Shown one piece after another: positions 1 through 21,740 of a stretch of DNA of 23,165 nucleotides. The translations under genes and the position numbers were made by a program. Each line of letters starts with the position of its first letter. The first letter of the stretch is position 1. The notes beneath the pieces are model-generated. The model was not told the DNA's origin. It saw only the letters and a program-made list of their open reading frames with translations, and did not search any database. This DNA is from a virus (taxonomy: Duplodnaviria > Heunggongvirae > Uroviricota > Caudoviricetes): IMG/VR virus record IMGVR_UViG_2585427789_000019; one strand, written 5' to 3'.

Positions 1-275
1 CAGCGTTTCCGCCATTTCTTCCTGAAGTGCGCTGATTCGCTCCTGTGCTTCCTGTATCTGCCGTTCGGTTTTAGCGCGAAGTTTTTCTGAGCTTTTACCG
101 AACTGCATGCGCTGCAGTTTCGCAACCAGCGCCTTCAGCCGGTTGATTTCGGAAGCATAAGCCGCCACCCGCTGTGAGAGCAGGCGGTTGTATTTCGCCA
201 TCTGGCGGATGGTGTCCTGTTGCGTCTGCAACAGTGCCCGCAGGCGGGCATTCTCATGAGCAAGTGAGGTGTCCA
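1..275 (-). CDS. tnpC: IS66-family transposase TnpC, N-terminal portion only (gene runs off window edge)
   Basis: Minus-strand translation from the ATG at 275..273 gives MDTSLAHENARLRALLQTQQDTIRQMAKYNRLLSQRVAAYASEINRLKALVAKLQRMQFGKSSEKLRAKTERQIQEAQE..., the leucine-zipper N-terminus typical of IS66 transposases; the frame is open to position 1. Confidence 0.75.
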
Positions 276-295
276 TATCCTCACTTTACAACGGG

Positions 296-643
296 TTATA
301 TGCGGATGCCAGCGCGTTCCGTTCGTTTCGGGTGCTTCCAGTCGATGCCTTCGAGAAGCATGGACAACTGAGCCGGAGTAAGGTGAACCTTTCCATCGCG
401 GGTGACCGGCCAGACGAAGCGGCCCCGCTCCAGGCGTTTGGTGAAGAGGCACAGTCCGTCACTGTCAGCCCACAGCACTTTTATCTGGTCACCCCGGCGT
501 CCGCGGAAGATGAACAGATGCCCGGAGAACGGGTCATCCTTCAGGACGTTCTGAACTTTTGAGGCCAGGCCGTTAAAGCCATTTCGCATATCGGTGATAC
601 CGGCAACCAGCCAGATACGCGAACCGGCAGGGAGAGATATCAT
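296..643 (-). CDS. tnpB: IS66-family TnpB (Orf2) accessory protein
   Basis: 115 aa (MISLPAGSRIWLVAGITDMRNGFNGLASKVQ...), the characteristic size and sequence of IS66 Orf2; its start overlaps the tnpA stop (ATGA). Confidence 0.8.
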   Translation of the reverse strand: MISLPAGSRIWLVAGITDMRNGFNGLASKVQNVLKDDPFSGHLFIFRGRRGDQIKVLWADSDGLCLFTKRLERGRFVWPVTRDGKVHLTPAQLSMLLEGIDWKHPKRTERAGIRI

Positions 644-1293
644 CAGTGGCTGCTCCCTTTCATTTCGCGGATAAGTGTCTGTAATAACGCCGGTGTCAGT
701 TCACCTTTCAGCCTGAGAGTTCCGGCCGGCAGAACCAGCTCGCAGCACAGACTGTCTGGCAGTGTATTTATCTGTTCAGGTATCTGCACTGGTGCCGGGA
801 TTTTATTATCCGGCTCCGGAGTTAACGTCACGGGAAGTAGCGATGTTTCATGTTCGCCGGGCGGTTGCAGGCCACCGTTACGCCAGAGATGCCGCCAGTT
901 AAAGAGCAGGTTATCGTTAATTCCATTCTCTCGAGCTATTTGTGCGACACAGGCACCGGGTAAAAGAGTTTGCTGAACCAGTCTCCATTTAAACTCCGGT
1001 GAAAATCGGTTCCGGCGGGGTTTCTCTGCTTTCACAGGCTGAGTCACGGTCGGGGCTGAAGGGTATCGCCCCGGGAAAAGAGCCCGGGCCAGTTGCCCGC
1101 AGGAATATTCACCGGAAAGAGGCCAGTCAGTGAATACCTGGTGAAATCGCCTCACCAGAGAAAAAATGGCGGTTTTGCTGACACCAGTCTGCGCAGAAAT
1201 GCGCGGGTACGACAGTGACTCGTCAAATCTCAGCTGTAGCACACGCAGGATCAATTCTGGATTATCTGCCAGTACCGCTTTTCGTGCATTCAT
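643..1293 (-). CDS. tnpA: IS66-family TnpA (helix-turn-helix accessory protein); true start may be internal
   Basis: 216-aa ORF with an IS3/IS66-type HTH segment (RFSPEFKWRLVQQTLLPGACVAQIARENGINDNLLFNWRHL) directly upstream of and coupled to tnpB. Confidence 0.65.
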   Translation of the reverse strand: MNARKAVLADNPELILRVLQLRFDESLSYPRISAQTGVSKTAIFSLVRRFHQVFTDWPLSGEYSCGQLARALFPGRYPSAPTVTQPVKAEKPRRNRFSPEFKWRLVQQTLLPGACVAQIARENGINDNLLFNWRHLWRNGGLQPPGEHETSLLPVTLTPEPDNKIPAPVQIPEQINTLPDSLCCELVLPAGTLRLKGELTPALLQTLIREMKGSSH

Positions 1294-1379
1294 CTTAAAT
1301 GTCCTTTTACTGCGAAAATGGACATTAGTATCGGAAACAGGAAAGGGAGGCGAAAGACGGTTTAAATGATGCGCTTACC

Positions 1380-10577: not shown

Positions 10578-11660
10578 TTAGAACTGATACACCAGACCTA
10601 CAGCGACGATGTCGTCGGTATCAATACCAGCTGTTTTGGTAAACTTACTATCGTCAATTAAGTTGATTTTGTAATCAACAAAAGTGGACATGTTTTTATT
10701 AAAGTAGTAAGTAGCACCGACATCGACATACTTGACTAAGTCTCGGTCACCATGAACACCAAGGTCTTTACCTTTTGACTGAAGGTAAGCAACAGATGGT
10801 CGCAGACCGAAGTCAAACTGATATTGTGCTACTGCTTCAAAGTTTTGTGCTTTGTTTGCAATATGGTTATTACCAAAAACGGTCATATTCTGAGTTTCAG
10901 AATATGTGGTAGCCAGATAGATATTGTTCGCATCATATTTCAGGCCTGCAGCCCATACTTCCGCATTTTTGCCGGAGGCATTGAATTTGCTCTTACCATA
11001 GGCGACCTGACCGTCAGTGCGATCTGATTTAGCATAGGTTGCACCCACGCCGAATCCTTCATACTCATAAGTAGTGGAGAAACCGAAACCATCACCATTG
11101 GCTTCAGTTACGTCAGTGCGGTCATTTTTACCCTGATACTGAGCAGCAAAGTTCAGGCCATCGACCAGACCAAAGAAGTCGTTGTTACGATAGGTTGCAA
11201 CACCAGTGGTGCGACCAGTCATGAACACATCTGTTTGGGTCCAGGTATCGCCACCGAATTCTGGCAGAACGTCAGTCCACGCACCGATGTCGTATGCTAC
11301 ACCGTAGTTACGGCCGTAATCGATTGAGCCGTAGTCACCGAATTTCAGGCCTGCAAATGCAAGACGGGTTTTGTCTTTGGAGGAACCTTGAGATTCAGCG
11401 CGGTTGCCTTTGAATTCATATTCCCACTGACCGAAACCAGTCAGTTGATCGTTGATTTGGGTTTCACCTTTGAAGCCAAGACGGGCATAAGTAGTATCAC
11501 CATCATCTGCATCGTTAGAGGAAAAGTAGTGCTTGGCATTAACTTTCCCGTACAGATCCAGCTTGTTACTGTCTTTATTATAAATTTCAGCTGCCTGAGC
11601 AGACATCGCCATCAGTACTGATGCAGCTACAGCAGAAATTGCCACTGTTAATTTTTTCAT
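10578..11660 (-). CDS. nmpC: OmpC/OmpF-family outer-membrane porin (NmpC-type), apparently intact
   Basis: 360 aa with signal peptide ([23 protein letters not shown]), porin beta-strand pattern and C-terminal ...VGLVYQF; uninterrupted reading frame. Confidence 0.9.
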
Positions 11661-14464: not shown

Positions 14465-14690
14465 TTTGCGGGTCCTTTCCGGCGATCCGACAGGTTACGG
14501 GGCGGCGACCTCGCGGGTTTTCGCTATTTATGAAAATTTTCCGGTTTAAGGCATTTCCGTTCTTCTTCGTCGTAACTTAATGTTTTTATTTAAAATACCC
14601 CCTGAAAAGAAAGGAAACGACAGGTGCTGAAAACGAGCTTTTGGGCCTCTGTCGTTTCCTTTCTCTGTTTTTGGCCGTGGAATGAACAAT
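14465..14690. other. Lambda-type cohesive end site (cosQ-cosN-cosB)
   Basis: cgatccgacaggttacg followed by GGGCGGCGACCT (cosN, 14499..14510) and cgcgggttttcgctatttatgaaaattttccggtttaagg..., near-identical to the lambda right-end/left-end junction as I recall it, running into the Nu1 start. Confidence 0.75.
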
Positions 14691-15264
14691 GGAAGTCAAC
14701 AAAAAGCAGCTGGCTGACATTTTCGGTGCGAGTATCCGTACCATTCAGAACTGGCAGGAACAGGGAATGCCCGTTCTGCGAGGCGGTGGCAAGGGTAATG
14801 AGGTGCTTTATGACTCTGCCGCCGTTATAAGATGGTATGCCGAAAGGGATGCTGAAATTGAGAACGAAAAGCTGCGCCGGGAAGTTGAAGAACTGCGGCA
14901 GGCCAGCGAGACAGATCTCCAGCCAGGGACTATTGAGTACGAACGCCATCGACTTACGCGTGCGCAGGCCGACGCACAGGAGCTGAAAAATGCCAGAGAC
15001 TCCGCTGAAGTGGTGGAAACCGCATTCTGTACTTTCGTGCTGTCGCGGATCGCAGGTGAAATTGCCAGTATTCTCGACGGGATCCCCCTGTCGGTGCAGC
15101 GGCGTTTTCCGGAACTGGAAAACCGACATGTTGATTTCCTGAAACGGGATATCATCAAAGCCATGAACAAAGCAGCCGCGCTGGATGAACTGATACCCGA
15201 ACACGGCACTGGTCGGCGTGCAGGTGGACTCGGAGCAGTTCGGCAGCCAGCAGGTGAGCCGTAA
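14689..15264 (+). CDS. nohD: Terminase small subunit (Nu1 homologue) with a non-native C-terminal tail from a deletion junction
   Basis: [71 protein letters not shown]... matches lambda Nu1 through ...[14 protein letters not shown], then diverges ([21 protein letters not shown]) as the frame runs into J-derived DNA. Confidence 0.8.
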
Positions 15265-18040
15265 TTATCATCTTCGCGGGCGCATTCTGCAGGTGCCGTC
15301 GAACTATAACCCGCAGACGCGGCAATACAGCGGTATCTGGGACGGAACGTTTAAGCCGGCATACAGCAACAACCCGGCCTGGTGTCTGTGGGATATGCTG
15401 ACCCACCCGCGCTACGGCATGGGGAAACGTCTTGGTGCGGCGGATGTGGATAAATGGGCGCTGTATGTCATCGGCCAGTACTGCGACCAGTCAGTGCCGG
15501 ACGGTTTTGGCGGCACGGAGCCGCGCATCACCTGTAATGCCTACCTGACCACGCAGCGTAAGGCGTGGGATGTGCTCAGTGATTTCTGCTCGGCGATGCG
15601 CTGTATGCCGGTATGGAACGGGCAGACGCTGACGTTCGTGCAGGACCGACCATCAGATAAGGTGTGGACCTATAACCGCAGTAATGTGGTGATGCCGGAT
15701 GATGGCGCGCCGTTCCGCTACAGCTTCAGCGCCCTGAAGGACCGCCATAATGCCGTTGAGGTGAACTGGATTGACCCGAATAACGGCTGGGAGACGGCGA
15801 CAGAGCTTGTTGAAGATACGCAGGCCATTCTCCGTTACGGTCGTAACGTCACGAAGATGGATGCCTTTGGCTGTACCAGCCGGGGGCAGGCACACCGCGC
15901 CGGGCTGTGGCTGATTAAAACGGAGCTGCTGGAAACGCAGACCGTGGACTTCAGCGTGGGTGCCGAAGGGCTTCGCCATGTACCGGGCGATGTCATTGAA
16001 ATCTGCGATGATGACTATGCCGGTATCCGCACCGGCGGGCGCGTGCTGGCGGTAAACAGCCAGACCCGGACGCTGACGCTCGACCGTGAAATCACGCTGC
16101 CATCTTCCGGCACCACGCTGATAAGCCTGGTTGACGGGCAGGGGAGTCCGGTCAGCGTGGAGGTTCAGTCCGTCACCGACGGCGTGAAGGTGAAAGTGAG
16201 CCGTGTTCCTGACGGCGTTGCTGAATACAGCGTATGGGGGCTGAAGCTGCCGACGTTGCGCCAGCGCCTGTTCCGCTGCGTGAGTATCCGTGAGAACGAC
16301 GACGGCACGTATGCCATCACCGCCGTGCAGCATGTACCGGAAAAAGAGGCCATCGTGGATAACGGGGCGCACTTTGACGGCGACCAGAGCGGCACGGTAA
16401 ATGGTGTCACGCCGCCAGCGGTGCAGCACCTGACCGCAGAAGTCACCGCAGACAGCGGGGAATACCAGGTGCTGGCCCGCTGGGATACGCCGAAGGTGGT
16501 GAAGGGCGTGAGCTTCCTGCTTCGCCTGACCGTGGCAGCGGATGACGGCCGTGAGCGACTGGTCAGCACGGCCCGGACGACGGAAACCACTTACCGCTTC
16601 ACACAACTGGCTCTGGGGAACTACAGGCTGACAGTCCGGGCAGTAAATGCGTGGGGGCAGCAGGGCGAGCCGGCGTCGGTATCGTTCCGGATTGCCGCAC
16701 CGGCAGCGCCGTCGCAGATTGAGCTGACACCGGGGTATTTTCAGATAACCGCCACGCCGCATCTTGCGGTTTATGATCCGACGGTACAGTTTGAGTTCTG
16801 GTTCTCGGAAAAGCGGATTGCGGATATCAGGCAGGTTGAAACCACAGCACGCTATCTTGGCACGGCGCTGTACTGGATAGCCGCCAGTATCAATATCAAA
16901 CCGGGCCATGATTATTATTTTTACATCCGCAGTGTGAACACCGTTGGCAAATCGGCATTCGTGGAGGCTGTTGGCCAGCCGAGTGATGATGCATCCGGCT
17001 ATCTGAATTTTTTCAAAGGAGAGATAGGGAAAACCCATCTGGCTCAGGAGTTGTGGACGCAGATTGATAACGGTCAGCTTGCGCCTGACCTGGCGGAAAT
17101 CAGAACGTCCATCACGGATGTCAGTAATGAAATCACGCAGACCGTCAATAAGAAACTGGAAGACCAGAGTGCGGCAATCCAGCAGATACAGAAGGTTCAG
17201 GTTGATACAAATAATAACCTGAACAGCATGTGGGCTGTGAAGCTGCAGCAGATGCAGGACGGACGCCTTTATATCGCGGGTATTGGTGCCGGTATTGAGA
17301 ATACCCCTGACGGTATGCAGAGTCAGGTGCTGCTGGCGGCGGACAGGATTGCGATGATTAATCCTGCGAATGGCAACACAAAGCCGATGTTTGTTGGTCA
17401 GGGCGATCAGATATTCATGAACGAAGTGTTCCTGAAATATCTGACGGCTCCCACCATTACCAGCGGCGGTAATCCTCCGGCATTTTCCCTGACACCGGAC
17501 GGGCGGCTGACGGCGAAAAATGCCGATATTAGCGGTAACGTGAATGCGAACTCCGGGACGCTCAACAACGTCACGATTAACGAGAACTGCCGGGTTCTGG
17601 GAAAACTGTCCGCGAACCAGATTGAAGGCGATCTCGTTAAAACAGTGGGCAAAGCTTTCCCCCGGGACTCCCGTGCACCGGAGCGGTGGCCATCAGGGAC
17701 CATTACCGTCAGGGTTTATGACGATCAGCCGTTTGACCGGCAAATTGTTATTCCGGCGGTGGCATTCAGTGGCGCTAAACATGAGCAAGATCATACTGAT
17801 ATCTACTCCTCATGCCGTCTGATAGTACGAAAAAACGGTGCTGAAATTTATAACCGAACGGCTCTGGATAATACGCTGATATATACGGGTGTTATTGATA
17901 TGCCTGCAGGCAGTGGTGTAATGACACTGGAATTTTCTGTATCGGCATGGCTGGTAAATGGCTGGTATCCCACAGCAAGTATCAGCGATTTGCTGGTTGT
18001 GGTGATGAAGAAAGCCACTGCAGGCATCATGATTAGCTGA
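15218..18040 (+). CDS. J: Tail-tip host-specificity protein J, N-terminally truncated fragment (about 940 codons); probably a non-functional remnant
   Basis: ...[108 protein letters not shown]... matches internal lambda J sequence as I recall it; no native N-terminus or Shine-Dalgarno, and the frame opens at the nohD junction. Confidence 0.85.
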
Positions 18041-18059
18041 ATTTTATAACCCAGATACG

Positions 18060-18084
18060 GGCGCCAGAAATGGCGCCTTTTTTA
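18060..18084 (+). terminator. Intrinsic terminator after J
   Basis: Stem ggcgcca/tggcgcc with loop gaaa (18060..18077) followed by tttttt. Confidence 0.6.
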
Positions 18085-18098
18085 TTTGTGGAGTGAAT

Positions 18099-20444
18099 AT
18101 GGCAGTACAGATTTCAGGTGTGCTGAAAGATGGTGCGGGAAAACCAATACAGAACTGCACTATTCAACTGAAGGCAAAGCGTAACAGCACCACGGTACTG
18201 GTGAACACGGTGGCCTCTGAAAATCCGGATGAAGCCGGGCGTTACAGCATGGATGTTGAGCATGGCCAGTACAGCGTCACCCTGCTGGTTGAAGGTTTTC
18301 CGCCTTCACATGCCGGAACCATTACCGTCTATGAAGGTTCCAGACCAGGTACGCTGAATGATTTTCTCGGTGCCATGACGGAAGATGATGTCATGCCGGA
18401 GGCATTGCGTCGTTTTGAGGCAATGGTGGAAGAAGCGGCACGCAACGCCGAAGCCGCCTCTCAGAGCGCAGCGGCGGCAAAGAAATCCGAAACTGCAGCG
18501 GCATCATCGAAGAACGCGGCGAAAACCTCAGAAACGAATGCAGCTAACAGCGCACAGGCGGCAGCGTCCTCGCAGACTGCATCGGCAAACTCCGCGACAG
18601 CAGCCAAAAAATCAGAAACCAACGCGAAAAACAGCGAGACAGCCGCAAAGACGAGCGAAACCAACGCAAAGTCCAGCCAGACGGCAGCGAAAACCAGCGA
18701 AACGAATGCCAAAGCCAGTGAAACTGCGGCGAAAAATAGCCAGAATGCAGCAGCCGAAAGCGAGAGCGCGGCAGCCGGTTCTGCGACTGCAGCAGCTGGA
18801 TCAGCAACTGCTGCGGCTAACAGCCAGAAAGCAGCGAAGACGAGCGAAACTAACGCAAAGTCCAGCCAGACGGCAGCGAAGACCAGCGAAACAAATGCCA
18901 AAGCCAGCGAAACTGCGGCGAAAAGCAGTCAGGATGCAGCAGCCGAAAGCGAGAGTGCTGCAGCTGGTTCTGCAAGTGCGGCGGCTGCTTCTGCCACTGC
19001 ATCAGCAAACAGTCAAAAAGCTGCAAAAACCAGTGAAACCAATGCAAAGACAAGCGAGACTGCAGCGGCGAACTCGGCGCAAGCATCGGCAGCAAGCCAG
19101 ACAGCAGCTAAAGCAAGTGAGGATGCAGCCAGAGAGTATGCAAGCCAGGCAGCAGAGCCGTATAAATATGTCTTACAGCCACTGCCTGATGTGTGGATAC
19201 CGTTTAACGATTCACTGGATATGCTTGCTGGCTTTTCGCCTGGTTATAAGCAAATAACCGTAGGTGATGATGTTATTAAAATGCCATCCGATAAGGTTGT
19301 TAGCTTCAAACGCGCATCAGGTGCAACATACATTAATAAATCAGGTGTATTAACCGTTGCTGAAGTTGACGAACCGCGATTTGAACGAGAAGGTTTGCTG
19401 ATTGAAGGACAGAGAACAAACTATTTCAGAAATTCAAATACACCAGAAGCATGGAATAACACGGGTAGTGTGTCTGTTGAGTCGTTCGACAGTGATAAGG
19501 GGTTTAACTATGGAAGGATAACTGTTATTAATGAAAATCCGACAGCACAAGGATATCAGGCAATTGCTGTAAACACGAATGATGCTTACACCTGCCCGGC
19601 AGGTTCTTATACGACGATATCGTGTCTGACGAAAAGTGATAATTCCCGGTGTCGTGCAAGGTTCGGAAAAATGTCTGATAATGGTGCGTTTGTTTTTCAT
19701 TCAGATGCAGTTCTGGATCCTGTTACGGGAAATGTTGTTCATGGAAATAATGTGACGGTGACGGCAGAAAGAGTCGGTGAATGGTGGTTGTTTACCGCCA
19801 CTCTTTTTGCAGATGCGGAAATGATAATCAGCTCAAGATTTGAAATCCTGGCGATGCCTGGAATCAGTATTATCCCCAATGGCTCTACGTTAGATATTGC
19901 GATGCCTCAGGCGGAGATTGGGTCGTACAGGACGTCATTTATCATTACTGAAGGGGCTCCTGGCACTCGCTCCAGCGACATGGTGACAATACCTGTAAGA
20001 AACAATATTCACCGATTACCATTCAGTGCTCTTGTTGAAGTTAATAAAAACTGGGATATCCCTCCCAGCAAATCACCATTAATCTTTAATGTTAAAGATT
20101 ATCAGGAAAATGGTCTGTTCACGCATGGATTCCGTGGTAATAATTTCTCTGATGCCGGTTCTCCTTTTATTTCTATGGGAGGGTGTAATAAATATGTGGC
20201 AACAACCCAGAGGAAAATCATTTCAGGCTTCCGTTGTGGCGCTGATGGAGATGTTCAGGCCGTATGTAATGGTGAATTATCTGTTGCGGCAAAAACAACA
20301 TGGACTTCAATTGTTCCACGGGCAGTATTGCGAATTGGAGGGCAGGGCACTAATGGGGAGTATCATCTTTTTGGTCATATCCGTAATCTGCGTATCTGGC
20401 ATAAAGAATTAACTGATGCGCAAATGGGGGAGAGTATTAAATGA
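18099..20444 (+). CDS. stf: Side tail fibre protein (lambda Stf-like N-terminus, Ala/Ser-rich repeat shaft, non-lambda C-terminal domain)
   Basis: ATG at 18099 with ggag Shine-Dalgarno; MAVQISGVLKDGAGKPIQNCTIQLKAKRNSTTVLVNTVASENPDEAGRYSMDVEHGQYSVTLLVEGFPPSHAGTITVYEGSRPGTLNDFLGAMTEDD... matches the Stf N-terminus; followed by AAKTSETNAK-type repeats. Confidence 0.85.
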   Translation: MAVQISGVLKDGAGKPIQNCTIQLKAKRNSTTVLVNTVASENPDEAGRYSMDVEHGQYSVTLLVEGFPPSHAGTITVYEGSRPGTLNDFLGAMTEDDVMPEALRRFEAMVEEAARNAEAASQSAAAAKKSETAAASSKNAAKTSETNAANSAQAAASSQTASANSATAAKKSETNAKNSETAAKTSETNAKSSQTAAKTSETNAKASETAAKNSQNAAAESESAAAGSATAAAGSATAAANSQKAAKTSETNAKSSQTAAKTSETNAKASETAAKSSQDAAAESESAAAGSASAAAASATASANSQKAAKTSETNAKTSETAAANSAQASAASQTAAKASEDAAREYASQAAEPYKYVLQPLPDVWIPFNDSLDMLAGFSPGYKQITVGDDVIKMPSDKVVSFKRASGATYINKSGVLTVAEVDEPRFEREGLLIEGQRTNYFRNSNTPEAWNNTGSVSVESFDSDKGFNYGRITVINENPTAQGYQAIAVNTNDAYTCPAGSYTTISCLTKSDNSRCRARFGKMSDNGAFVFHSDAVLDPVTGNVVHGNNVTVTAERVGEWWLFTATLFADAEMIISSRFEILAMPGISIIPNGSTLDIAMPQAEIGSYRTSFIITEGAPGTRSSDMVTIPVRNNIHRLPFSALVEVNKNWDIPPSKSPLIFNVKDYQENGLFTHGFRGNNFSDAGSPFISMGGCNKYVATTQRKIISGFRCGADGDVQAVCNGELSVAAKTTWTSIVPRAVLRIGGQGTNGEYHLFGHIRNLRIWHKELTDAQMGESIK
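18648..19026 (+). repeat. Imperfect 189-bp tandem duplication (63 codons x 2) inside stf, itself built from 21-bp Ala/Ser/Thr-rich sub-repeats
   Basis: Units beginning aagacgagcgaaac at 18648 and 18837 are near-identical for the first 120 bp or so (KTSETNAKSSQTAAKTSETNAKASETAAK.S...AAAESESAAAGSA...). Confidence 0.8.
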
Positions 20445-20722
20445 AAGATTTAACACTCAAATTTGCAGACAGGGCCGACTTTTCGGCCTTTATGGAGAGT
20501 ATTGGCTATTATGATGACGAGTCGATGCAGGATGATATTCTTATTGACGTGATAGGTAACGTGTACAAAGAAACCGGAGAACTGACTGAAGATGGCGAAC
20601 CGGTATGTGTTAAGGAAGACGGATATTTTGTAAACGTGCGCATCATTAATGATGTAAAAAAATCGTCAATATTCGATAAATACGCGGTTGTTGTTGAGCA
20701 TCAACTTCGTGGCTGGATGTGA
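20441..20722 (+). CDS. Hypothetical acidic protein (93 aa), translationally coupled to stf
   Basis: ATG at 20441 overlaps the stf stop (ATGA); MKDLTLKFADRADFSAFMESIGYYDDESMQDDILIDVIGNVYKETGELTEDGEPVCVKEDGYFVNV...; no family recognised. Confidence 0.5.
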   Translation: MKDLTLKFADRADFSAFMESIGYYDDESMQDDILIDVIGNVYKETGELTEDGEPVCVKEDGYFVNVRIINDVKKSSIFDKYAVVVEHQLRGWM

Positions 20723-20731
20723 GGGAGACAA

Positions 20732-21436
20732 ATGGCTACATCGACAGTAATTCCAGGAGATATCACCACGCTAAAGGGAGATGTCAGTAAAACTAAGGAA
20801 GATATTTCCTCAATTAACGGAAAAGTATCAACGCTTCAGACTGATATGACCAGTGCAAAGCAGGATATCAGCACCAGATACACAAAAACTGAAGTTGATA
20901 ATAAGCTGAAAAACAAACTGGAAGTGAACGATCTGGAAAGCGGTCGTTATGGTGGAGATTTTTACCCGTTGACTGGCCGTGAAGCGTTTTATATGTGGGG
21001 ATTGGGCACGACTACAGCGGCGGCAAACCTTTATCTTAATCCTGACCCTGCAATTTCGTCTGTACTGCGGTCAACATCGTCTATTCGCTATAAACATTCA
21101 GTAGAGACGATAGATTCAGAGCACGCCGATCTCATTTTCAGGATGCGCCCTGTGTGGTACAGGTCGCAATGCGAAAATGACAGGCGTGACTGGGGATTCT
21201 ACGGATTGATTGCCGAGGAAGTAGGAGAAATTGCCCCTCAGTTTGTACACTGGCGACCAGCTAACGAAGATGATGCTCCTGAAGCTATTTCCAGCAATGG
21301 CCTTGTTGCCGAAGGTGTAATGTACGAACGTCTGGTTGTTCCACTGATTCACCATATCCAGAAGCTGACTGAAAGAGTTGATGAACTTGAGTCAGAATTA
21401 AAGTTGTTATCCGTTTCCCGAAGCGATATCGGATAA
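20732..21436 (+). CDS. Short tail-fibre-like protein with a C-terminal intramolecular-chaperone (peptidase S74-like) domain
   Basis: ATG at 20732 with gagggag Shine-Dalgarno; C-terminus ...SSIRYKHSVETIDSEHADLIFRMRPVWYRSQ...WGFYGLIAEEVGEIAPQFV...GVMYERLVVPLIHHIQKLTERVDELESELK resembles the autoproteolytic chaperone domain of endosialidase and L-shaped tail fibres; N-terminus looks like a coiled coil. Confidence 0.55.
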   Translation: MATSTVIPGDITTLKGDVSKTKEDISSINGKVSTLQTDMTSAKQDISTRYTKTEVDNKLKNKLEVNDLESGRYGGDFYPLTGREAFYMWGLGTTTAAANLYLNPDPAISSVLRSTSSIRYKHSVETIDSEHADLIFRMRPVWYRSQCENDRRDWGFYGLIAEEVGEIAPQFVHWRPANEDDAPEAISSNGLVAEGVMYERLVVPLIHHIQKLTERVDELESELKLLSVSRSDIG

Positions 21437-21446
21437 AGGAGGAGTA

Positions 21447-21740
21447 ATGGATATAACACCTTTCCTTCATGCGCTTTGTGCTGTGGCTGCGCAGCTACTG
21501 ATTGGTCTTTTTACCGGGAACTGGGCTTACGGGGCGATAGCCGGTTGTACGTTCTTCATTGCGCGTGAACACACCCAGGCAGAATATCGCTGGATCGAAA
21601 TGTTCGGGCATGGCAAGCGAATGAATATGCCGTGGTGGGGCGGTTTTGATACACGTGCATGGGATGTGGCAAGCCTGATGGATTTTGCTGTGCCGGTGGT
21701 GGCGTGTCTGCTGGTCTGGCTGTTGGTTAATCGTGGGTGA
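21447..21740 (+). CDS. Hypothetical small membrane protein (97 aa)
   Basis: Strong aaggagg Shine-Dalgarno before the ATG at 21447; two or three hydrophobic segments (LHALCAVAAQLLIGLF, AYGAIAGCTFFIA, FAVPVVACLLVWLLV). Confidence 0.5.
   Translation: MDITPFLHALCAVAAQLLIGLFTGNWAYGAIAGCTFFIAREHTQAEYRWIEMFGHGKRMNMPWWGGFDTRAWDVASLMDFAVPVVACLLVWLLVNRG

Follow-up and report, generated by a model that had tools for sequence, protein, structure and literature searches.

Nested tandem repeats inside a tail fibre gene raise two questions: what the repeated sequence builds, and whether its copy number changes in nature. The stretch of DNA analysed here (the window; 23,165 nt, IMG/VR virus record IMGVR_UViG_2585427789_000019, Caudoviricetes) carries such a repeat in stf, the gene for a side tail fibre (Stf). 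A sequence-only reading had described it as a 189-bp duplication built from 21-bp units within the stf shaft, capable of expanding or contracting by recombination or slippage and generating long spurious open reading frames (ORFs) in other frames and on the opposite strand. With a probability of about 85%, the repeats encode the proximal coiled-coil shaft of a lambda-type Stf in which a block of 63 amino acids (aa) has been duplicated in tandem. The features on which this reading rests are the following.

18099..20444, plus strand: stf, side tail fibre gene, 781 aa (RefSeq begins the gene at the ATG at 18099; there is an in-frame GTG at 18093)
18099..18380, plus strand: predicted N-terminal collar/anchor domain attaching the fibre to the tail (PF08400 and PDB 9e7m/9mgh matches)
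18414..19148, plus strand: array of 35 uninterrupted heptads (21-bp units), predicted from heptad layout and composition to form an alpha-helical trimeric coiled-coil shaft
18648..18836, plus strand: 189-bp unit 1, 9 heptads, 63 aa (Tandem Repeats Finder, TRF, and direct comparison)
18837..19025, plus strand: 189-bp unit 2, 9 heptads, 63 aa (TRF and direct comparison)
19026..19067, plus strand: two more heptads, KTSETNA KTSETAA, counted by TRF as a 0.3 partial third copy
19398..19973, plus strand: core of the putative variable C-terminal receptor-binding region (NCBIfam NF048003; whole region 19149..20441)

Periodicity and nested structure of the array

TRF applied to 17500..20500 gave a score of 612 to a period of 189 bp, which spans 18629..19067 in 2.3 copies with 83% matches and without indels. 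Shorter periods of 21 and 42 bp were detected in several overlapping arrays between 18596 and 18994. When 18400..19200 was scanned by lag, the best lag was 189 (60% identity); the 18 lags ranked after it were all multiples of 21 (43-50%), and the best non-multiple reached 36%. Units 1 and 2 agree at 162 of 189 positions (85.7%): the count is 116/126 (92%) over the first two-thirds and 46/63 (73%) over the remaining 63 nt. These 27 nucleotide differences amount to only five amino acid differences, and the last third of the unit is far more diverged at silent sites. Each unit comprises nine 7-codon sub-repeats of Ala/Ser/Thr/Lys/Glu/Asn/Gln, reading KTSETNA KSSQTAA KTSETNA KASETAA K[N/S]SQ[N/D]AA AESESAA AGSA[T/S]AA A[G/A]SATA[A/S] ANSQKAA, in which the alternation of N and A at heptad position g gives rise to the 42-bp period. 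When the order of the 35 heptads was shuffled 300 times, the best in-phase 189-nt pair averaged 62% identity and never exceeded 69%, compared with the 85.7% observed, and the 189-bp duplication is therefore not a side effect of the small heptad repeats.

The structural part of the sequence-only reading is borne out by these results. Both levels of nesting were recovered, as was the identity of about 90% that it had given for the first two-thirds of the units, and the Ala/Ser/Thr/Lys/Glu sub-repeats number nine per unit within an array slightly wider than the interval first marked. The TRF check that it proposed returned periodicity at 189 bp and at 21 bp rather than none. The assignment to the stf shaft likewise holds, on the basis of PF08400, the 9e7m/9mgh match, the position of the gene after a truncated J gene and the heptad register shared with lambda.

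Identity of the fibre protein

The stf product is listed in RefSeq as WP_000290529 ('prophage tail fiber N-terminal domain-containing protein'), and it aligns from end to end with phrog_1419 ('tail protein'). PF08400, the prophage tail-fibre N-terminal family, covers residues 3-133 (E 5.9e-67, 224 bits against a cut-off of 26.6), and residues 1-94 match the tail fibre chain solved in PDB 9e7m/9mgh as the N-terminal collar domain (E 4.6e-48), a chain whose sequence is that of lambda orf-401 residues 1-94. In the distal part, the NCBIfam model NF048003 ('phage head spike fiber' domain) matches residues 436-627 (E 3.5e-18). Taken together, the PF08400, phrog_1419, 9e7m and NF048003 matches point to a side tail fibre with a lambda-type anchor and a putative non-lambda receptor-binding end. 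The collar domain, the position after J and the heptad register, by which the Stf family is recognised, are all three present.

A heptad-repeat shaft

Residues 108-352 divide into sevens as 35 heptads with zero phase breaks, following the consensus A-[K/A]-x-S-[E/A/Q]-T-[A/N]. A table of 36 heptads, starting at residue 101, has Ala at position a in 31 of them and Ser at position d in 32; position b holds Lys or Ala, e holds Glu, Ala or Gln, g holds Ala or Asn, and Thr predominates at f. Proline is absent from the array, and glycine occurs in three heptads only, always at position c. The Viterbi phase path makes no jump before the last heptad in shafts of the window type. An AlphaFold2 monomer model places helix at residues 105-281 and 293-350, with a predicted local distance difference test score (pLDDT) of 50-82 in these segments and a mean of 51 overall, the underlying alignment being shallow.

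The standard rise of a coiled coil is 0.148 nm per residue. At this value the 245 residues of the array would form a rod of about 36 nm, and one 63-residue unit would account for about 9 nm.

The same phase analysis of lambda orf-401 (Stf) found about 32 heptads at residues 111-330, with Ala/Val at a, Ser at d and no phase shift. This stretch falls within residues 102-393 of the trimeric Ur-lambda gpStf, which have been described as the 'proximal coiled-coil domain' from cryo-electron microscopy, cryo-electron tomography and AlphaFold3 modelling (PMC12617516).

By homology with Ur-lambda Stf, three Stf chains would wind into a thin, parallel alpha-helical coiled coil, a rod joining the N-terminal collar domain on the tail to the variable C-terminal receptor-binding domain. 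A block of exactly nine heptads (63 aa, 189 bp) was duplicated in tandem long ago, and unequal homologous crossover between the two units can then remove or add a copy, which would change the rod by about 9 nm each time. Since such a gain or loss involves only whole heptads, it leaves the reading frame and the register of the coiled coil intact. The trimeric state of this shaft and the effect of the units on its length are both inferred.

Alleles that differ in unit number

Two-unit alleles are the norm among natural stf genes, and one-unit alleles were found in two distinct settings. In phage IdasGreatGrand, Stf is shorter by exactly 63 residues (189 nt), and its single unit resembles unit 1 up to about position 96 and unit 2 from position 119, placing the crossover at unit positions 97-118. 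In a prophage of Escherichia coli AVS0655, for which a complete genome is available, Stf is also exactly 63 aa short, and the switch lies at unit positions 57-70. Since the crossover points differ, the contraction in AVS0655 was an event independent of that in IdasGreatGrand, and the two alleles represent two separate in-register crossovers. A synthetic one-unit query was matched in a single piece by at least five complete E. coli genomes, namely AVS0655 and at least four more. In a further locus, L089, another 35 aa, equal to five heptads, are gone.

Expansion is represented by IMG/VR contig L086, the sole match when AESES markers were sought three in a row at intervals of 189 nt. It encodes an Stf of 857 aa with 3.3 TRF copies in the order U1-U1'-U2, with 11 differences between the extra unit and the one beside it. 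A synthetic U1-U1-U2 query against complete E. coli genomes retrieved only two-unit alleles, matched in two pieces, and the real three-unit sequence of L086, searched against E. coli genomes and GenBank phages, again retrieved only two-unit alleles. An exact scan of GTDB genomes for the three-marker pattern gave no match. A search with the three-unit shaft protein found no second three-unit protein among the clusters listed, a weak absence in that nearly all of those proteins are 'partial' and full-length proteins are unlisted.

Across 128 distinct shafts, 16 length classes were distinguished, the commonest being 255 aa, and nine of them (255, 248, 241, 227, 199, 192, 178, 157 and 150 aa) are separated from one another by multiples of 7. 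The top 80 IMG/VR loci, ranked by similarity to a two-unit query, are not an unbiased census of copy number. With copies standing head to tail and alleles differing by whole units, the array behaves as an in-frame tandem repeat with copy-number polymorphism, and the comparison among relatives that the sequence-only reading had proposed yields alleles with one, two and, on a single contig, three units.

The database homologues of Stf are almost all 'partial' proteins of 400-613 aa from short contigs, and the full-length 781-aa protein is not among the matches listed. The pattern points to draft assemblies being regularly interrupted inside this repetitive, multi-copy gene or shortly downstream of it.

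Weighing a rigid shaft against a flexible linker

Several observations speak against a coiled-coil shaft of variable unit number. Position a is occupied by the small apolar Ala, and position d by Ser, which is polar, so that the core is not the canonical hydrophobic one of Leu, Ile or Val. No solved structure covers the residues of the heptad array; the AlphaFold2 run modelled a monomer at a mean pLDDT of 51, which supports helix and is silent on oligomerisation and trimerisation; and the Ur-lambda shaft model is itself an AlphaFold3 prediction fitted to low-resolution tomograms (PMC12617516). On the side of length variation, seven of the 16 length classes do not differ from the window allele by multiples of 7; most of these classes have a single member, or comprise draft proteins marked 'partial' or alleles whose distal module differs (e.g. 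PhiR47_1). The three-unit allele is a single observation from one 8-kb draft-derived contig, and searches of 5,426 complete E. coli genomes, GenBank phages, GTDB species representatives and the listed protein clusters turned up no second example. The support for the three-unit allele is thin.

The polar residues at d and the moderate confidence of the AlphaFold2 model could also be accommodated if this Ala/Ser/Thr-rich region were a flexible, low-complexity or disordered linker instead of a rigid coiled coil, as could the composition of the 245 residues, which are of low complexity and dominated by Ala, Ser, Thr, Lys and Glu. However, a linker of this kind would not be expected to hold 35 heptads in register with positions a and d conserved at about 90%, nor to restrict most natural indels to multiples of 7. 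The lack of proline, the confinement of glycine to position c of three heptads and the helix predicted throughout also argue against it, as does the homologous lambda segment, which appears as a straight proximal rod in tomograms (PMC12617516). A disordered linker is accordingly improbable, and the proximal coiled-coil shaft with its duplicated block remains the preferred reading.

Age and stability of the duplication

Comparison across phages shows that unit 1 is 93-98% identical to unit 1, and unit 2 to unit 2, whereas the two units within one gene are 90-92% identical in the head and 71-73% in the tail. Each unit resembles its counterpart in other phages more than its neighbour in the same gene; it follows that the duplication took place before these alleles diverged and that the units are not undergoing homogenisation.

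Tandem head-to-tail copies and the existence of in-frame length variants are also what would be seen at a hypermutable contingency locus, at which slipped-strand mispairing switches fibre length at high frequency. Against this, all 60 best E. coli matches share one gene length, and stf at its best place is at least 99% identical in 119 E. coli records (113 genomes carry at least 80% of the gene). Synthetic one-unit and three-unit queries derived from the window allele revealed no whole-unit gain or loss among near-identical alleles in the 5,426 complete genomes. In addition, the units are only 86% identical, runs of perfect identity between them reach at most 29 nt, and no homogenisation is under way. 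A phase-variable repeat is thus not what is seen here, given units of 86% identity and no length change among alleles at least 99% identical, and a high-frequency switch is highly unlikely.

The array is not a contingency locus, and its expansion and contraction are real but rare. Judged from the sequences of the alleles, the copy-number events look like occasional unequal homologous crossovers. The earlier proposal that the array can expand or contract by recombination or slippage is supported by natural alleles with one and two units and by one with three, with the qualifications that change is rare and that slippage was not demonstrated.

Possible exchange of receptor-binding tips

Between alleles, the N-terminus and shaft of stf keep an identity of 95-99%, while the C-terminal regions agree at only 37-66%. 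The resemblance to other stf alleles stops at discrete positions of the gene, at about 356-359, 579-585, 894 and 1331-1365 (window 18448..19457). The first of these sites is the start of the heptads, 579-585 lies inside unit 1, 894 lies inside the tail of unit 2, and 1331-1365 is a conserved junction past the shaft, where a conserved segment PLPDVW...LLIEGQRTN is found. These discrete positions suggest preferred recombination junctions.

The contrast between the conserved shaft and the divergent tips, together with the discrete ends of similarity, some of them within units, would also fit a role in which the repeats serve chiefly as conserved, repetitive DNA homology for the swapping of C-terminal modules, rod length being incidental. 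Such a role is compatible with a coiled-coil shaft. However, the commonest break (1331-1365) lies past the heptads, and the strict heptad phase and the residues at a and d show selection on the protein and not on DNA homology only. It is a possible but rather unlikely account of why the repeats matter.

Alternative-frame and antisense ORFs

The array is overlapped by four long ORFs, all regarded as by-products of the repeat.

18385..19257, plus strand: 290-aa ORF in another frame over the array, a by-product and not a gene
18461..18901, minus strand: 146-aa antisense ORF over the array, a by-product
18544..18807, minus strand: 87-aa antisense ORF, a by-product
18850..19095, minus strand: 81-aa antisense ORF, a by-product

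The T content of the array is 9%, compared with 27% for the whole window, and stop codons are consequently scarce in all frames on both strands. This low T content accounts for the spurious ORFs that had been anticipated in other frames and on the opposite strand. In the three-unit allele of L086 the plus-strand alternative ORF grows to 342 aa. Minus-strand genes have been annotated inside the Stf heptad array elsewhere, namely lambda orf206b (L090 648..1268, within orf-401) and a 'hypothetical protein' in E. coli EFF60 (L088 2512..2868). Both are most likely artefacts of the T-poor repeat.

The length of these ORFs, up to 290 aa, and the annotated equivalents in lambda and EFF60 might be taken to mean that one of them is a real overlapping gene. 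However, stop codons are scarce everywhere at this base composition, the ORF lengthens with the number of units, as a by-product would, and the translations are monotonous repeats of Arg/Gln/Pro/Lys or Ala/Phe/Leu. The chance that any of them is a real gene is therefore minute.

Genomic context in a defective prophage

The window from position 1379 onwards has 100% identity with the DLP12-type defective prophage that lies at argU in E. coli B REL606, MIN14, AST19 and others, and a 100% match to stf by itself also occurs in E. coli C, ATCC 8739 and many others. The gene order runs from intD through quuD, the porin, the lysis genes, the terminase small subunit, truncated J and stf to three ORFs of 93, 234 and 97 aa; downstream of the 97-aa ORF lie a tfa fragment and then appY. 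Two genes flank stf directly.

15218..18040, plus strand: J, N-terminally truncated tail tip gene directly upstream of stf (Pfam J domains)
20441..20722, plus strand: 93-aa gene whose start overlaps the stf stop (phrog_1361, unknown function); it always follows this type of stf

RefSeq lists the truncated J as a pseudogene 'missing N-terminus', adjoining the terminase small subunit gene, and in the prophage the whole stretch from the terminase small subunit to mid-J has been lost. The truncated J thus marks both the tail module in which stf lies and the defect of the prophage. In the window (14689..18040), the shortened J touches or overlaps the gene for the terminase small subunit; no head or tail-tube gene is left, and stf is intact. 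Owing to this deletion, there is no tail to which the stf fibre could attach. The number of units in the DLP12 copy thus matters only if stf is recombined into a live lambdoid phage. Such an exchange is plausible in view of the conserved N-terminus and shaft, the variable tips and the discrete break points.

The 93-aa gene also stands directly after stf in IdasGreatGrand, PhiR46_1, Lambda_2E9 and the AVS0655 prophage, and its product may be an assembly factor for this type of tip. No tfa gene was seen directly after stf in IdasGreatGrand, PhiR46_1 or the AVS0655 prophage. A conserved set of three genes (93, 234 and 97 aa) follows stf in the window at 20441..21740. The 234-aa protein carries an S74 intramolecular-chaperone domain and resembles the C-terminal part of a far longer fibre (phrog_3299 positions 1147-1384), and the 97-aa ORF has no family match. 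In IdasGreatGrand and AVS0655, the 93-aa gene is followed by the 705-bp second gene of this set.

Two further observations concern the rest of the window. Positions 1..1378 are not DLP12 and represent an IS66-family element inserted in the integrase gene intD, with a TnpB_IS66 ORF at 299..643 and a transposase helix-turn-helix ORF at 646..1293, both on the minus strand. No genome in the complete E. coli collection carries the IS66/intD junction, and every 100% match starts at 1379. On the minus strand at 10578..11660, an intact gene for a 360-aa OmpC-like porin occupies the nmpC position of DLP12, a gene that is interrupted in K-12.

Comparison with known fibres

The Stf of lambda and Ur-lambda resembles the window protein in its homologous collar domain (E 4.6e-48), in its place after J, in the Ala(a)/Ser(d) register over about 32 heptads and in shared motifs such as AAKTSETNA. 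However, lambda Stf is without a 189-bp tandem duplication of this kind, and its distal half is T4 gp37-like and needs Tfa, whereas here a 'head spike fiber'-type end is followed by the 93-aa gene; moreover, the window copy sits in a defective prophage. Closer relatives are found in the active phages PhiR46_1, 2G7b, Tritos, ev207 and IdasGreatGrand and in E. coli prophages, whose N-terminus and shaft are 91-99% identical to those of the window and mostly carry two units. These alleles differ in their receptor-binding ends (37-66%) and, in IdasGreatGrand and AVS0655 (one unit) and L086 (three units), in unit number. The order J-(lom)-stf is common to the window and related phages, with lom present between J and stf in IdasGreatGrand, PhiR46_1, PhiR47_1 and AVS0655 but not in the window.

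Small-residue cores are known from alanine-zipper three-stranded coiled coils in unrelated proteins, for example E. coli Lpp-56, a parallel trimer. Rods built from repeats that vary in copy number likewise occur in adenovirus fibre shafts, streptococcal M proteins and the stalks of trimeric autotransporters, which are comparable in mechanism and do not belong to the same family. Among phage proteins, the N-terminal part of the Klebsiella depolymerase DpK2 (residues 130-175) contains the same KTSE-NAKSSE-AAKNSE heptads, and both DpK2 and gp17 are trimeric fibre or spike proteins in which an N-terminal anchor is followed by an alpha-helical bundle. However, their sequence relation to the window protein is weak (E 0.003 for DpK2 and 0.46 for gp17), and their bundles are much shorter. 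The N-terminus of DpK2 was seen as an 'extended triple helical bundle' and left unmodelled (PMC8552709).

Implications

The array is a feature of an ordinary and well-understood kind, in a member of the lambdoid Stf family, and makes a small addition to a known theme. No description of the 63-residue block or of its variation in copy number was found in the literature searched. We consider it a speculative idea, with the odds clearly against it, that the nine-heptad block acts as a length-tuning cassette, in which recurrent in-register crossovers would give fibres of one, two or three blocks, in steps of about 9 nm, and selection might match the reach of the fibre to the thickness of the host O-antigen or capsule, whatever the tip.

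The main value of the finding lies in annotation and engineering, and no new biological question is opened by it. It explains the long false ORFs that arise from stf, some of which have already been annotated in lambda and RefSeq, and it may help to explain why the stf homologues in the protein database are mostly partial, possibly through draft assemblies breaking in or near the gene. In addition, it indicates that the length of the fibre can be changed without breaking it, in whole heptads and naturally in blocks of nine, which is useful for the design of chimeric Stf proteins in phage-based delivery.

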